DNA of 64,000 nt from Ignavibacteria bacterium (GCA_025612245.1 JAAXKQ010000014.1:40028-104027); one strand, 5' to 3'. Shown: positions 17,306 to 63,469, counted from the stretch's first letter. Notes: a model not told the origin generated them from the sequence alone. Numbers and translations: made by a program.

Positions 17306-18685
17306 CTAAAGATTGAAGTACATTTTATACTCGAAGGGATGCGGCATTGTGCCAATGGATTTAATTTCCTCCTGCTTCAGCTTTACCCACTGGTGAAGGA
17401 GCTCATCCGTAAAAATGTCTCCGCGCCTTAAGAAATCATTATCTGCATCGAGAGCGTCCAGGGCTTCCGAAAGGTTTCTCGGGAGGAAATGAATGCTGTC
17501 CCTGCTATTTTCATCTATATTCTTATCGAATGGGCCATAGCCTTCCTTAACGGGATCGATCTTATTTACAACGCCGTCCAGTCCGGCAAGCAGCATTGCC
17601 GTAATGCACAGGTAAGGATTTGCAGTTGCATCCGGGGGACGGTATTCAAAACGTGTTTCTTCCGGGTTGGTGACGTATTTGGGGATTCTGATTGCACCGG
17701 CGCGGTTTCCCTGCCCGTAGGTCAATGCTACAGGGGCCTCAAAGCCCGGCACAAGCCTTTTATAAGAGTTTGTGCTGGGATTTGTAAAGGCCGAAAGTGC
17801 GGGGCCGTGCTTCAGCATTCCGCCGATAAAGAAGCGGCCCAGTTCGTTAATGTTTCCATACTCCCCTTTTTTATAGAAAGCGTTCTTTCCGTTTTTGGTC
17901 AAAAACATGTGAAGGTGCATGCCATTCCCAGCCTGCTGGTACATCGGTTTTGGCATAAATGTAACAAACAGGTCCTTCTGGCGCGCAAAATTAAAAAGAA
18001 CATATTTGCTCGTAACGATATTGTCGGCAGTTGCAAGCAGATCGGTAAAGTAGGTTTCAATTTCCTGCTGGCCGCGTTCCCCGGCCTCATGGTGGTGGTA
18101 CTTTACCTTGATTCCGAACCTCTGCAGGAGCTTTGAAGCCTCGTCGCGGAAGTCGTCGTAAACGTCGAAAGGATTGGCTGCATGGTAAGCCTTCTTGTAA
18201 AACTCCTCTGCGTGTTCCACCCTGTAGTAGGAAGAAGCCGTACGGGTATCGTATTCGACCTTGGAGAATATGTAAAACTCAAATTCCGGCCCCCAGAGCG
18301 ACTTATCTGCTCCCGTAATTTCTTTAAGAAGGCTTTCTGTTTTCTTTGCCAGGTAGCGCCCGTCCTGTGAAAATGGAGTGCGCTTGCCGTCGGTTAAGAT
18401 TATATGAGAGTAGAAGCTTAAAGTTGGGGCCTCCCGGAAAGGATCTATCACAGCACTCTGAAGGTCGGGTACCATAATCATATCGCTGTTTTCCACCCTG
18501 CTGAAGCCGAAGCTGGAGCCGTCGAAGCCTACTCCTTCATTAATTAGTTTAGTTAAAAGTCCTGGATAAAAAGGAAGTGAGATGTGGTGAAGGCGTCCCG
18601 AGAGGTCAATACACTTAAGGTCGATGATCTCAATGTTGTTTTTTTTGATCAGATTATTGCAGCTTTGAAGAATGTTCTCTGGCAT
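17306..18685 (-). CDS. glnA: glutamine synthetase (type I-like)
   Basis: 459 aa. Motifs include KPMYQQAGNGMHLHMFL, NPSTNSYKRLVPGFEAP and RIPKY...RFEYRPPDATANPYL. Confidence 0.9.
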   Translation of the reverse strand: MPENILQSCNNLIKKNNIEIIDLKCIDLSGRLHHISLPFYPGLLTKLINEGVGFDGSSFGFSRVENSDMIMVPDLQSAVIDPFREAPTLSFYSHIILTDGKRTPFSQDGRYLAKKTESLLKEITGADKSLWGPEFEFYIFSKVEYDTRTASSYYRVEHAEEFYKKAYHAANPFDVYDDFRDEASKLLQRFGIKVKYHHHEAGERGQQEIETYFTDLLATADNIVTSKYVLFNFARQKDLFVTFMPKPMYQQAGNGMHLHMFLTKNGKNAFYKKGEYGNINELGRFFIGGMLKHGPALSAFTNPSTNSYKRLVPGFEAPVALTYGQGNRAGAIRIPKYVTNPEETRFEYRPPDATANPYLCITAMLLAGLDGVVNKIDPVKEGYGPFDKNIDENSRDSIHFLPRNLSEALDALDADNDFLRRGDIFTDELLHQWVKLKQEEIKSIGTMPHPFEYKMYFNL

Positions 18686-18769
18686 AACAACCCCTGATTA
18701 TTAAAAAATAATTTTGGTGGGACAAAGGAGTGTGTAAATGTTGCCGTATGGACTCTTTTGTCCAGAGAC

Positions 18770-18795
18770 AAAAAAGCGCCTGATTGCTCAGGCGC
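18770..18795 (-). terminator. rho-independent terminator of eno
   Basis: The minus strand reads GCGCCTGA-GCAA-TCAGGCGC followed by TTTTTT. Confidence 0.75.
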
Positions 18796-18821
18796 CCTAA
18801 AAGAACATATAATTGTGTCAA

Positions 18822-20237
<1,416 letters not shown>

Positions 20238-21310: not shown

Positions 21311-21384
21311 GCCCCCGTAGCTCAGCAGGATAGAGCGTCGGTTTCCTAAACCGCAGGTCGGAGGTTCGAATCCTCTCGGGGGTA
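21311..21384 (+). tRNA. tRNA-Arg (anticodon CCT)
   Basis: Folded by hand: acceptor GCCCCCG/CGGGGGT, D arm GCTC..GAGC, anticodon stem TCGGT/ACCGC with loop TTCCTAA, T arm GGAGG-TTCGAAT-CCTCT. CCA is not encoded. Confidence 0.9.
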
Positions 21385-21512
21385 CAAATGAAAGTCGAAA
21401 ATTAAATGTTTTCGGCTTTTCTCGTTTCTTATAGTTGATGAATTTACTATCCGCCTCCTATAATCACCTACAAATGTAAAATATGGGAATTATGAATCAT
21501 TTTACCCCGTTT

Positions 21513-22310
21513 TCACTCTTCCAGTTTATACTCCCAGAGTAAACGATAATTAAACGGAGCATCATAAAACGGCTGAATATACTGCCCCTTTATTCTTACC
21601 AGGCCCTCATTCAATTTAAAGAAGCCTGAGGAAAACGCATCAATCTCTATCTCTTTATCTTTAGGAGCAGTAAATTTATAATATCTCGGCATCCTCTCCC
21701 AATTCAGATATTCAGAGAAACTAATGAAATGCAATTTATCCTCATAAATCTCAAAGGCCGTATGGACCGTATCGACATGCGATTTGATAATTCCATTAGA
21801 GGATTCAAAGGTAGTATCAATTCTGGTTTCATTTACTTTTAATACCAGAGTATCATTTCTTGTGACTAATTTATACATATCCCATATTAGTCTTCCATTC
21901 CTTTCTATTTTATCAATTGACCCACTGCTTTTATAATTGAATTTAAATATTTTCATCCCAGTCTTCATTGGAAAATAATCGCAATATTGTGGACGAAGTT
22001 CTATTTCCATCGTAGTATCGACTGAGACATAAATACTCTTTACCAGGGTATCATATTGCGGGCAGGTAAATTGAAAGGAATAATTTCCATCCGAAGGTAC
22101 AGAAAACTTAAAAGTCCCATCAGAGCTTGTAGTGTATTCCTTATTATCAATTTTAATTTTCACATTACCGAGTTTTACAGACGGATAAGTTTCATAATCG
22201 ACAACGGTCCCGTAAATGGTATAACATTTTTGCAGTGACTGCGCTTGGCTATTATTCGGGTAAAACAAAAGTACGAATATGAAACCAGTTATGTAGACTA
22301 AAAAATGCAT
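21513..22310 (-). CDS. secreted hypothetical protein with N-terminal CarboxypepD_reg-like beta-sandwich
   Basis: 265 aa with signal peptide (...NNSQAQS). YTIYGTVVDYETYPSVKLGNVKIKIDNKEYTTSSDGTFKFSVPSDGNYSF follows the pattern of carboxypeptidase-regulatory-like domains. Confidence 0.45.
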   Translation of the reverse strand: MHFLVYITGFIFVLLFYPNNSQAQSLQKCYTIYGTVVDYETYPSVKLGNVKIKIDNKEYTTSSDGTFKFSVPSDGNYSFQFTCPQYDTLVKSIYVSVDTTMEIELRPQYCDYFPMKTGMKIFKFNYKSSGSIDKIERNGRLIWDMYKLVTRNDTLVLKVNETRIDTTFESSNGIIKSHVDTVHTAFEIYEDKLHFISFSEYLNWERMPRYYKFTAPKDKEIEIDAFSSGFFKLNEGLVRIKGQYIQPFYDAPFNYRLLWEYKLEE

Positions 22311-22666
22311 TTATCTGTTTTCCTCCCAAACAGGATCAAAAAGCCGGAAATGAAGTTGTTATTCATAGAAAGATGCTGTTTTTTTGAGCAGCACAATTCA
22401 TTCAAATGCAAATTAAGCTGCATACTGTACATAGTCAAATTACCAATAAATAATAATATTATGCTCAGGAGAATATTTCCTGAAAGTTGTACACCCCCAT
22501 ACAGGATAAACTGTTTTAATATATCAATGATCATATCTTGGCTTCAGTCTACTGATGATGGATTGATTGAGTTAAATGTAGATTGGGATGCCTAGATTAT
22601 AAGGAAAACAAAGAGGGGGAAATGGTGAGATTCCCCTAAGAATTTGGCAAAAGAAGTTCTTTCTAG

Positions 22667-23467
22667 TCAGAATTTGAAGCAAAATGAAATGTTTGCAGTT
22701 TGACTGTCTGATTCAATTTGTACGTACAGGTTATCCTGTTTGACTATTATGGCATCCATCAGGCTTAAGGCATAGAAGACCCCTGCTGATATGAAACTTA
22801 TAGTACTGTAAGTGCTGAAGTTCTTAGATTCATTATTGTAAAAGTCTCTCCTGGCTTGTGTGTGTGAGCTGAATGCTTTATTTATTGCATCCATTTCCAG
22901 TTGCCTGAAGGCAAGTCCGCCTGCAACGCCTCCAAGAGCCAAAACCATAAAAGAAACTCCTTTGAAAGTCTCTTCCTTATAAAGCTGCCCCCAGCCGGGC
23001 AGAAGCAGTGACCGCCATATGGGAGAAATTGCCGACGGTGGCGTAACAGGACTCTTCTTTGGAAGGGATAACAGGACCCATGCTTCAGTGCGTGCCCCAT
23101 TTTCCTCATAATAACTTTCAACTTCTTTCAGGTTTTTAATTGTTCTGGATTCACCTTCCGATTTCAATTCCTGTGCTGATTTTCTGACTATTTCCAGCTG
23201 ACTCTTATCATCAAATACATTCTGGGTGGAAGTAATTTTATCCTCTTCAGCGTATTTTATTGTCAAAATGCCATATCGCATGATGGAAATAATGGCGTTT
23301 TCAAAAGCGACCTGCTTTGCATCGGCTTTGGATTTATTGCTTACTCCACTACCTACAAAGTAGTCATTAAGATAACCCGGAGGTACTTTTTTTATCCATT
23401 CAGGCTGGGAGAATATATCATGGCTACTAATAAATATAAGCACCCATAAGAAAACTAGTTTCTGCAA
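22667..23467 (-). CDS. LPP20-like N-terminal domain + C-terminal membrane segment protein
   Basis: 266 aa with signal peptide. QPEWIKKVP...YFVGSGVS is LPP20-like. The C-terminal WRSLLLPGWGQLY plus two hydrophobic helices resemble DUF5683-type segments. Confidence 0.45.
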   Translation of the reverse strand: MQKLVFLWVLIFISSHDIFSQPEWIKKVPPGYLNDYFVGSGVSNKSKADAKQVAFENAIISIMRYGILTIKYAEEDKITSTQNVFDDKSQLEIVRKSAQELKSEGESRTIKNLKEVESYYEENGARTEAWVLLSLPKKSPVTPPSAISPIWRSLLLPGWGQLYKEETFKGVSFMVLALGGVAGGLAFRQLEMDAINKAFSSHTQARRDFYNNESKNFSTYSTISFISAGVFYALSLMDAIIVKQDNLYVQIESDSQTANISFCFKF

Positions 23468-62104: not shown

Positions 62105-62130
62105 ATCTAATTTTCTGCCGCATAAAAAAA

Positions 62131-62162
62131 GCCCTGAAATCTTTATGGTTTCAGGGCTTTTT
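62131..62162. terminator. bidirectional rho-independent terminator
   Basis: AAAAAAA-GCCCTGAAA-N9-TTTCAGGGC-TTTTT. Confidence 0.75.
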
Positions 62163-62164
62163 AG

Positions 62165-62200
62165 TGTGGGCGCTATAGGATTTGAACCTATGACCTTTCG
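62165..62200. repeat. 36-bp exact copy of the 3' half of tRNA-Val (att-like direct repeat; partner at 63350-63385)
   Basis: TGTGGGCGCTATAGGATTTGAACCTATGACCTTTCG is identical at both positions by direct comparison. Confidence 0.9.
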
Positions 62201-62266
62201 GATGGAAATATTATTGCTTCAACGGGGTTCAGCATATCCGGACAGGGTGAATCTATAAAGATAACC

Positions 62267-62574
62267 TTGAAATATTCAGTAAAGGGACAGGCTGTAAATG
62301 AAGCAATTAACATTTGTTCAACTGTTCATAATGGAAACGGTTTAAGATTTTGGTTCTTGTGTCCTCTGGTTGCTCATAAAGGAATCTGCAATAAAAGAGT
62401 AAGCAAGCTTTATTTACCAAATGGCGCAAAATATTTCGGATGCCGGGTATGTTATAATTTACTTACACCAGTTGTCAGGAAAGCAATAAACTTGACGGGC
62501 TGTATAAACTACTTGCCAAACAAATCGGATGTAGTTCAAGTGATATAAAAGAAGTACTACAAAGGATAATTTAG
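62267..62574 (+). pseudogene. frameshifted/5'-truncated zinc-ribbon gene
   Basis: The ORF reads ...GLRFWFLCP...CNKRVSKLYLPNGAKYFGCRVCYNL. The -1 frame then continues open as TYTSCQESNKLDGLYKLLAKQIGCSSSDIKEVLQRII* to 62574. A single missing base near 62459-62463 would join the two frames. Confidence 0.4.
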
Positions 62575-62639
62575 ATTTTATATAAATGGAATAATTCCTT
62601 ATTATTGCAGAAGCCAAAAATATTATAGGGAATATAGCA

Positions 62640-63053
62640 ATGATTCAATTTACCAGTAACTTGTACAAGACATTACTCATAGTTCTCATTTCATTTTTAT
62701 GTGCGTTAAATCTTTATCAGCTTATCTTTGTACAAAATATTATCAGTATCATTCCCCTTTTACTTCAAATACCAATACTTTTCTTTTTGTACAAAAAACA
62801 AAAGCATCTTATTCTATTTATCAAGATATGGGCAATATTACTTCTTATTAGTGGTATCACAGGTTGGCTAGCAATTTTGAGCGGGAAACTTGTTACTAAT
62901 TTAGGCGGCAGTGTTGATCCGGCAGAATCGGGTATTTTCAACCTTTTAGATAAAACTATAGCTCTTATGGCTGGGTTATACTTTTTAATGTTCTTAAAAG
63001 ACAGTATAGAGGTTAAGAAAGCAGAACCTGAATTAATAGAAAATAATAATTAG
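62640..63053 (+). CDS. small four-helix membrane protein, hypothetical
   Basis: 137 aa with four hydrophobic segments, in the AT-rich insert. Confidence 0.4.
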   Translation: MIQFTSNLYKTLLIVLISFLCALNLYQLIFVQNIISIIPLLLQIPILFFLYKKQKHLILFIKIWAILLLISGITGWLAILSGKLVTNLGGSVDPAESGIFNLLDKTIALMAGLYFLMFLKDSIEVKKAEPELIENNN

Positions 63054-63238
63054 CCTTTCAAAATTGACAGTAAGGTTTAATAGTCTTAAATTACTCTTGA
63101 AACAAAAAAGCCATAAACAAATAAGATTTTGATACTGAATAAACCCGATTGAGTTTATAGGGAAATGGCTTTCCTTGTTTCGCTCGATTGGGTTTTTCAG
63201 TTTTAAAATGTTCTTGCGGTATTGTATGAAGCTAAAAA

Positions 63239-63284
63239 GTGCATACAAAAGTGCATACAAAACTGTATGTAAATATGTATGTAA
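63239..63284. repeat. repeat cluster next to the att-like site
   Basis: GTGCATACAAAA occurs twice in tandem (63239-63262). It is followed by two copies of TGTATGTAA (63264-63272, 63276-63284), which contain the inverse core CATACA/TGTATG. Confidence 0.6.
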
Positions 63285-63351
63285 TGGCTGAACCGGGCAA
63301 CCCTTTTAAAAAGAAAAACCCCAAAATTAACTAAATTTTGAGGTTTTTTTG

Positions 63352-63425
63352 TGGGCGCTATAGGATTTGAACCTATGACCTTTCGCGTGTGAGGCGAACG
63401 CTCTAAACCGCTGAGCTAAGCACCC
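63352..63425 (-). tRNA. tRNA-Val (anticodon CAC)
   Basis: The minus strand reads GGGTGCT-TA-GCTC-AGCGGTTTA-GAGC-G-TTCGC-CTCACAC-GCGAA-AGGTC-ATAGG-TTCAAAT-CCTAT-AGCGCCC-A. The cloverleaf folds cleanly. A hairpin plus T-run follows. Confidence 0.9.
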
Positions 63426-63469
63426 TTTTTCCTAAAGAAGCTTAAATGCTAAACTTCCGTGCTGCTAAT

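Follow-up and report, generated by a model that had tools for sequence, protein, structure and literature searches.

The DNA analysed in this study was a stretch of 64,000 nucleotides (64 kb) from an Ignavibacteria bacterium (GCA_025612245.1 JAAXKQ010000014.1:40028-104027), which is referred to as the window, with positions counted from its first nucleotide. It belongs to a contig of 107 kb from a JGI soil metagenome. Near the end of the window, a segment of 1149 bp (62201-63349) lies between a CHRD gene and the gene of tRNA-Val(CAC). This insert is very probably what decay has left of a tyrosine-integrase element specific for tRNA-Val, and thus a scar where such an element was once integrated site-specifically into tRNA-Val(CAC). 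It is bracketed by an exact duplication of the 3' part of the tRNA, it is absent from the same site in relatives, and part of it is homologous to intact integrase-bearing elements that are bounded by the same tRNA. The features of the locus are given below; L018 denotes the closest intact element found, int its integrase gene, and ORF an open reading frame.

62126-62162, no strand assigned: candidate bidirectional hairpin terminator of the chromosome, at the end of the CHRD gene (plus strand) and the presumed original terminator of the tRNA (minus strand).
62165-62200, minus strand: displaced 3' fragment of tRNA-Val, the remnant of the core of the right attachment site (attR), as an exact 36-nt copy.
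62201-62574, plus strand: zinc-ribbon pseudogene, from three-frame translation and homolog alignment.
62640-63053, plus strand: ORF137, an intact ORF of 137 amino acids (aa) for a predicted small multi-pass membrane protein.
63054-63189, no strand assigned: spacer between ORF137 and the arm, dissimilar to L018 and to all fetched loci.
63190-63313, minus strand: integrase-proximal arm, a remnant of the region upstream of int, from alignment to L018.
63314-63348, minus strand: element-borne hairpin terminator with a 15-pair stem and a T run, now ending tRNA-Val transcription.
63351-63425, minus strand: intact tRNA-Val(CAC), found by ARAGORN and Rfam, whose 3' part (63350-63385) is the second repeat copy, in the left attachment site (attL).

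The 36-mer TGTGGGCGCTATAGGATTTGAACCTATGACCTTTCG was present in exactly two exact copies in the window (62165-62200 and 63350-63385), and the number of copies expected by chance was 0, as obtained with dinucleotide-preserving shuffles. The tRNA-Val(CAC) gene on the minus strand was placed at 63351-63425 by ARAGORN and at 63352-63425 by Rfam, with a score of 71.6 bits. Counted along the tRNA, the repeat begins at position 41, one base 3' of the anticodon loop, and extends through the 3' end and 1-2 bases downstream of it. The intact tRNA at one end (63351-63425) and the partial copy at the other (62165-62200) form the direct repeat of tRNA-integrated elements, and the 3' part of the intact gene (63350-63385) is supplied by the element. 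The geometry of one partial and one complete copy has been illustrated for PYG1, and partial tRNA copies are a known source of tRNA mis-annotation (PMC9897764). The original prediction had pointed to this exact duplication and had interpreted it as the attL/attR geometry of an integration. The duplication was borne out by the counts, and the interpretation is supported by the empty sites and the homologous intact elements described below.

The composition of the insert was unlike that of the host. Its GC content was 32.0%, compared with 43.1% for the window, and was the minimum among all 1149-bp stretches in the 64 kb, which agreed with the AT-richness first noticed in the bracketed DNA. The insert contained a broken zinc-ribbon gene, the intact 137-aa membrane ORF and a repeat cluster (63235-63285), while no integrase was found in it, just as originally described; other recognisable mobility genes were not found in it either. 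A hairpin terminator had also been assigned to each repeat copy on the minus strand, and both hairpins were found to fold. The one at 62126-62162 has perfect arms of 14 bp, with a run of A on one side and a run of T on the other, and folding energies of −31.8 kcal/mol on the plus strand (z = −7.9) and −21.5 kcal/mol on the minus strand (z = −5.9), and by its structure it can serve as a bidirectional terminator. It now lies downstream of the displaced tRNA fragment only. The hairpin at 63314-63348 consists of 15 pairs followed by a T run (−14.9 kcal/mol, z = −3.9, minus strand). An insertion sequence (IS) element or a miniature inverted-repeat transposable element (MITE) was also considered for the insert and rejected, as the ends of the insert carry no inverted repeat and what flanks it, instead of a short target-site duplication, is a repeated tRNA segment of 36 bp.

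Relatives of the locus were found by scanning the GTDB species genomes with the CHRD protein. Two full-length syntenic relatives were obtained (L004 and L005), with CHRD proteins of 75-77% aa identity. Both possess the gene order CHRD, terminator, tRNA-Val (minus strand) and S9 peptidase, without the insert, and the distance from the CHRD stop to tRNA-Val is 88 nt in L004 and 188 nt in L005. The 36-mer is single-copy in each, and the tRNA-Val sequence is the same in the window, L004 and L005. Between the window and these two relatives, the S9 peptidase showed 81% aa identity and the flanking DNA 75-87% nt identity. A third empty site was found on a 392-nt contig of soil run X9 with a depth of 38, in which only 83 nt separate the tRNA from a CHRD end of about 86% identity. 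The flanks were conserved at all three empty sites, and tRNA-Val stands close to the CHRD terminator in each of them, in agreement with the arrangement that the original prediction had expected in close relatives. No match to the insert was found in any of 14 genome loci. The L004 and L005 contigs are JBLNAZ010000015.1 and JBLMYS010000318.1, and the labels of their metagenome-assembled genomes (MAGs) are Syntrophomonadaceae and Acidobacteriota. The CHRD protein carries a sorting tail of the type IX secretion system (T9SS), with tail matches in Ignavibacteriaceae and Melioribacteraceae. Because of the T9SS-tailed CHRD protein and the Ignavibacteria-like neighbourhood, both contigs are probably mis-binned. 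The host would be Ignavibacteria-like, judging from the T9SS tail, the tail matches and an Ignavibacteria-labelled relative of the integrase presented below.

Complete integrase-bearing elements bounded by the same att sequence were also found. L018 is a Logan contig of 9145 bp from run SRR24682781, with 33% GC. It opens with 30 nt from the 3' end of this tRNA-Val, and its final 30 nt run from the anticodon arm of the tRNA onward; since both ends are pieces of tRNA-Val, L018 is regarded as one complete element, either integrated or circular. Its att identity block is 51 nt long and covers tRNA positions 25-75. L018 encodes a tyrosine integrase (PF00589, phrog_1), a DnaD-like helicase loader (phrog_2514) and a DnaB-like helicase (PF03796) for replication, a tandem helix-turn-helix protein, a zinc-ribbon protein and several small membrane proteins. 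No capsid, conjugation or mobilisation gene, including a relaxase, was recognisable in L018 with Pfam and PHROGs. The second element, L116, has a length of 5.2 kb and an integrase (PF00589) that is 69% identical to that of L018; both of its ends are likewise tRNA-Val pieces, and its att identity block is 60 nt long (tRNA positions 16-75). The tRNA-derived att block is oppositely oriented relative to int in the two elements: the neighbour of int is the 3' end of the block in L018 (1-200, 9026-9145) and the internal boundary of the block in L116 (1-110, 5194-5221). The search for intact elements, suggested at the outset, was therefore successful, as L018 (9.1 kb) and L116 (5.2 kb) are both bounded by tRNA-Val pieces and encode tyrosine integrases. 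Two outcomes had been named beforehand as speaking against an integration, namely a lack of empty sites and a lack of any intact homologous element, and the opposite was found for both.

Further relatives of the L018 integrase were located next to other tRNA genes. The integrase of L112/L113 (k141_172427, SRR7003767_25220), with 62% identity to that of L018, adjoins a partial tRNA-Asp, and the integrase of L114/L115 from an Ignavibacteria MAG, with 51% identity, adjoins a partial tRNA-Met(CAT). Since partial copies of tRNA-Val, tRNA-Asp and tRNA-Met lie beside L018 and its relatives, this integrase clade targets tRNA genes, and its identity blocks start on the 5' side of the anticodon loop. 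Classes of integration sublocation within tRNA genes have reportedly been distinguished, including one with crossover in the anticodon loop, and the identity blocks of the clade would fit that class. The cargo of the L112/L113 island is a type I restriction-modification system in complete form (HsdM, HsdS, HsdR). In IMG/VR, no viral contig was found with the tRNA-Val 3' end by exact search.

The homology of the insert with L018 was examined at the arm and at the zinc-ribbon gene. With the tRNA block excluded, window 63190-63347 aligned to L018 31-203 with a score of 81, compared with 26 ± 4 for shuffles (z = 13). The arm homology extends about 17 nt into the int ORF of L018 and then ends; 6 nt (TGTATC) across the int start codon are absent from the window, and no integrase ORF lies beyond. 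The motif cluster at 63240-63283 is built from two TGCATACAA units and, inverted relative to them, two TGTATGT units. The motif order is common to the arms of the window and L018, with two ACATACA units followed by two inverted TTTTGTATGCA-like units. In L018, the motifs are located just upstream of int, and one further TTGTATGCA is found in the distal arm. By their position, the arm motifs could be arm-type integrase sites or an int operator. A profile built from ten members of the integrase family was used to scan the window and a further 10 kb of its contig (L001), and no integrase-like ORF was found in either. The insert has no integrase of its own beside the att site, and only the upstream arm of int survives, so that it is a remnant and not a complete member of the group. 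The spacer at 63054-63189 must hold the junction of the deletion that took the integrase and other genes, and no similarity to L018 or any fetched locus was detected in it.

The zinc-ribbon ORF, when read through its frameshift, has 15 homologs of 92-201 aa, among which the full-length ones are 154-201 aa. The best homolog, P0001 (58% aa identity), is located in L018, and the DNA of the two genes is 73% identical between window 62237-62455 and L018 6281-6499. About 63 codons are missing from the start of the window gene, including the conserved MGGxGSG start, and the gene breaks off precisely where the repeat ends, at 62200/62201. In addition, a 1-nt deletion (−1 frameshift) near 62459-62461 shifts ...CRVCYN to the frame that continues TYTSCQES...LQRII*, and the original stop is at 62572-62574. 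The possibility that the zinc-ribbon ORF continues through the att core when the element is circular was considered and rejected, as the core holds in-frame stops.

The zinc-ribbon protein had no match in Pfam, NCBIfam, PHROGs, PADLOC or PDB sequences, and the 15 homologs were without a Pfam domain. The AlphaFold model of P0001 was a confident one (predicted local distance difference test score, pLDDT, 79.8) and combines a zinc ribbon with a long antiparallel sheet and with helices at the C terminus; its Foldseek search against the PDB gave no match (best E = 0.35). A metagenome scan returned at least 307 loci of the family at 35-58% identity. Among the 43 loci of at least 3 kb, 12 have a tRNA within 10 kb, and in ten loci of this size a tyrosine integrase lies 0.3-8 kb downstream on the same strand. 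Other loci contain large serine recombinases next to a tRNA, and the family gene is usually downstream of primase- or helicase-like (prim-pol or helicase) genes. Because its genes sit with recombinases and tRNAs, the family is a marker of integrating elements. A homolog was present in only 2 of 2.9 million IMG/VR contigs; together with the result for the tRNA-Val 3' end in that database, this indicates that the family is not typically phage-borne.

ORF137 (62640-63053) is predicted to have hydrophobic segments through residues 5-85. Only one other cluster of relatives was found in 5.8 billion proteins, P0017, with 87% aa identity, which comes from three Logan contigs of 1.1 kb (L024-L026; SRR21890356, SRR21890358 and SRR21890360). 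The ratio of nonsynonymous to synonymous substitution rates (dN/dS) between ORF137 and P0017 was about 0.20, with a dS of 0.34. On the basis of this ratio, ORF137 appears to be under purifying selection while its surroundings decay. No hit was obtained for ORF137 in Pfam above the cut-off, in NCBIfam or in PADLOC, and one can only guess that it serves as cargo, for instance in exclusion or immunity. In the L024 contigs, the ORF137 homolog adjoins the tRNA-Val 3' end and a homologous terminator. There, 225 nt of the window (63067-63291, the arm segment) are replaced by 16 nt and the arm repeats are lacking; the zinc-ribbon gene is also absent, and the DNA is unrelated upstream of window position 62556.

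The locus probably arose in the following way. A small element with a tyrosine integrase and an attachment site (attP) that copies the tRNA from the anticodon arm to the 3' end would have recombined with the chromosomal tRNA gene. The element would have brought a new 3' half and its own terminator, so that the tRNA stayed intact, and the original 3' half and the chromosomal terminator would have been displaced to the far end, beside the CHRD gene. Decay by at least two rearrangements and one point indel would then have stripped nearly everything from the element. The integrase gene, from the start codon on, and the replication genes would have been lost in one deletion. Another event, which may have been a deletion or an inversion, would have had its breakpoints beside the anticodon loop of the displaced tRNA copy and at about codon 63 of the zinc-ribbon gene; this gene would thereby have lost its 5' end and the att block its anticodon part, and the distal arm would have disappeared. 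A later 1-nt deletion would have put the rest of this gene out of frame. The 36-bp repeat, one arm, the pseudogene and the intact membrane-protein ORF would be what was left over.

The two ends of the insert are consistent with such a history. The displaced tRNA copy comprises 36 nt of the 51-60 nt block of L018 and L116, without the anticodon stem-loop, and the DNA next to it is coding and carries no arm motif, so the distal arm is gone. attL retains the core, the terminator and the arm. The lost distal arm and the truncations at both places call for the two rearrangements at the least, and three routes to the present structure are possible. In one, an inversion between the anticodon loop of attR and about codon 63 of the zinc-ribbon gene came first, and the DNA between a point downstream of ORF137 and the start of int was then deleted. 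In another, two deletions took place in a parent with a different gene order. In the third, two elements of opposite polarity were accreted at the site, and deletions followed. The present data favour none of these routes over the others. One breakpoint is no more than a base or two away from where the integrase presumably cleaves, which hints at an illegitimate event mediated by the integrase, although this is speculation.

The insert was also found in other data sets. In soil runs X1-X4, a unitig covering 62171-63378 (62206-63378 in X2) was 100% identical to the window, and both flanks were present as well. Several independent long-contig assemblies show the insert in its integrated form, with ORF137 among the same gene neighbours, and parts of the insert at about 90% identity are present in other metagenomes, among them X8 and X13. 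In the soil metatranscriptome run X5, an exact contig of 339 nt (window 63125-63463) extended from the arm across the element-borne terminator and the tRNA to 38 nt upstream of the latter. This contig could come from read-through of the tRNA terminator, from an antisense transcript starting at a promoter-like site at 63064-63092, or from contaminating DNA.

Several observations weigh against a simple decayed element. The closest element found has only about 73% nt and 58% aa identity and would be a cousin of the true parent. The zinc-ribbon gene points toward the tRNA, which is opposite to its orientation relative to the arm in L018, and the present structure cannot be obtained by a single simple deletion of an L018-like element. 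The relatives with an empty site are different species. The L024 contigs pair an ORF137 homolog and tRNA-Val with different upstream DNA. Moreover, the insert unitigs were 1.1-1.45 times deeper than the chromosomal unitigs in the four soil runs, with depths of 19, 52, 18 and 27 against 12-16, 38-48, 13-16 and 19-24, respectively. A second strain, additional copies or a GC bias could account for the excess; the control for GC bias rests on unitig depths averaged over long contigs.

The reversed zinc-ribbon gene would be accounted for if two elements had been inserted in tandem at tRNA-Val and later fused by deletions, one having given the zinc-ribbon gene and ORF137, which read toward the tRNA, and an L018-like one having given the arm. 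Such accretion at tRNA sites is well documented (PMC5704250), and the L018 and L116 integrases use the same tRNA-Val with opposite att polarity. However, neither a third copy of the repeat nor a trace of an internal att core was seen between ORF137 and the arm, and the number of events needed equals that for a single parent with an inversion and a deletion. This double origin, which is a variant of the decay of an integrated element and does not contradict it, is conceivable, though it is more doubtful than not. At the opposite extreme, the repeat might be a local duplication or an assembly artefact without any site-specific integration. The Logan unitigs (k = 31) break inside the 36-nt core, which exceeds k−1, so that they hide the attB/attP junctions (attB being the empty chromosomal site) and by themselves do not prove the linkage of the insert with its flanks. 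Nevertheless, the foreign composition, the homology of its genes and arm with elements that bear an integrase and have the same tRNA at their ends, the precise empty sites in relatives and the same neighbourhood of ORF137 in the independent assemblies leave this explanation with hardly any credibility.

The original prediction had left a choice between a decayed remnant and a very small integrase-less element that is mobilised in trans. A mini-element of the latter type would resemble a cis-mobilizable element (CIME), a category established for decayed integrative and conjugative elements (ICEs) or integrative and mobilizable elements (IMEs) which retain attL and attR (PMC5704250) and catalogued in ICEberg 2.0 (PMC6323972). 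It would have lost its own integrase, kept usable attL and attR sites and could still be excised and moved by a resident or incoming integrase of the L018 or L116 type. The identity of the two repeat copies (100%), the retained arm with its motif cluster, the higher depth of the insert unitigs in the four runs and the divergent copies of its parts in other metagenomes are all in line with this. On the other side, attR is without the anticodon stem-loop, the presumed crossover region, which lies within the identity blocks of L018 and L116; there is also no distal arm with its TTGTATGCA site, and the core abuts a truncated coding sequence. Furthermore, no integrase was found within about 74 kb, the ends of L024 differ, the 1.15-kb segment was never seen moving as a unit, and the depth excess is within the range of GC bias. 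A mini-element of this kind is thus improbable, and mobilisation of the insert in trans is unlikely. Of the two options, the decayed remnant was retained, given the deleted int, the truncated and frameshifted zinc-ribbon gene and the shortened attR, and the integrase-less mobilisable element was disfavoured.

As a decayed remnant, the insert can be compared with known systems. Like tRNA-integrated islands and prophages, it has a repeat made of the tRNA 3' portion, an intact tRNA at one end with a partial copy at the other, a foreign interior and related elements with an integrase beside att; the att block of the intact relatives also runs from the anticodon arm to the 3' end. Unlike them, it is only 1.15 kb long and has no integrase, and its partial copy of 36 bp abuts a truncated gene, which indicates that one att site is damaged. 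It shares with CIMEs the absence of an integrase or other recognisable mobility gene. However, its parent type, L018, has no conjugation or mobilisation genes and carries a phage-like DnaD/DnaB module, which does not agree with descent from an ICE or IME, and the attR of the insert appears incomplete. With L018-type elements it has in common the tRNA-Val target, a homologous arm with the same motif order, a similarly low GC content (33%) and a homologous zinc-ribbon gene, after which comes a gene for a small membrane protein. It differs from them in that the identity is limited to 58% (aa) and 73% (nt), the zinc-ribbon orientation is reversed relative to the arm, and a homolog of ORF137 is absent from L018.

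Two other parts of the window attracted attention. The second-lowest GC content (33-36%) was found at 21311-22800, which starts directly after tRNA-Arg(CCT). Its ORFs encode CarboxypepD_reg-like and DUF5683 proteins, and neither an integrase nor a tRNA repeat was seen. This low-GC stretch beside tRNA-Arg (21.4-22.8 kb) was rejected as a second island for want of mobile-element genes, and it is probably not an island. At 18600-19500, no contig of at least 97% identity was found in X1, X3 and X4, despite full depth on both sides, and the segment looks like a strain-variable one in or near a 469-aa ORF (18822-20231).

Partial tRNA copies around decayed islands are textbook knowledge, and a single instance is of little weight. 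On a wider view, the parent lineage might be an undescribed family of integrating replicons or satellites of 5-9 kb, of the L018 and L116 types, in Ignavibacteria-like soil bacteria, with the remnant kept by an ORF137 domesticated for instance for exclusion or immunity, and perhaps still excised in trans; we regard this wider view as unlikely. Members of such a family may combine a tyrosine integrase, a DnaD/DnaB module, an uncharacterised zinc-ribbon protein without a structural relative among solved structures and several small membrane proteins, without recognisable capsid or conjugation genes. The present locus nevertheless marks tRNA-Val(CAC) as an active integration hotspot in an uncultured soil lineage, and it provides a documented example in which an occupied site, empty sites and an intact cousin are combined. 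It also points to an unnamed, widespread zinc-ribbon family, and to an orphan membrane gene that survives decay under apparent purifying selection.

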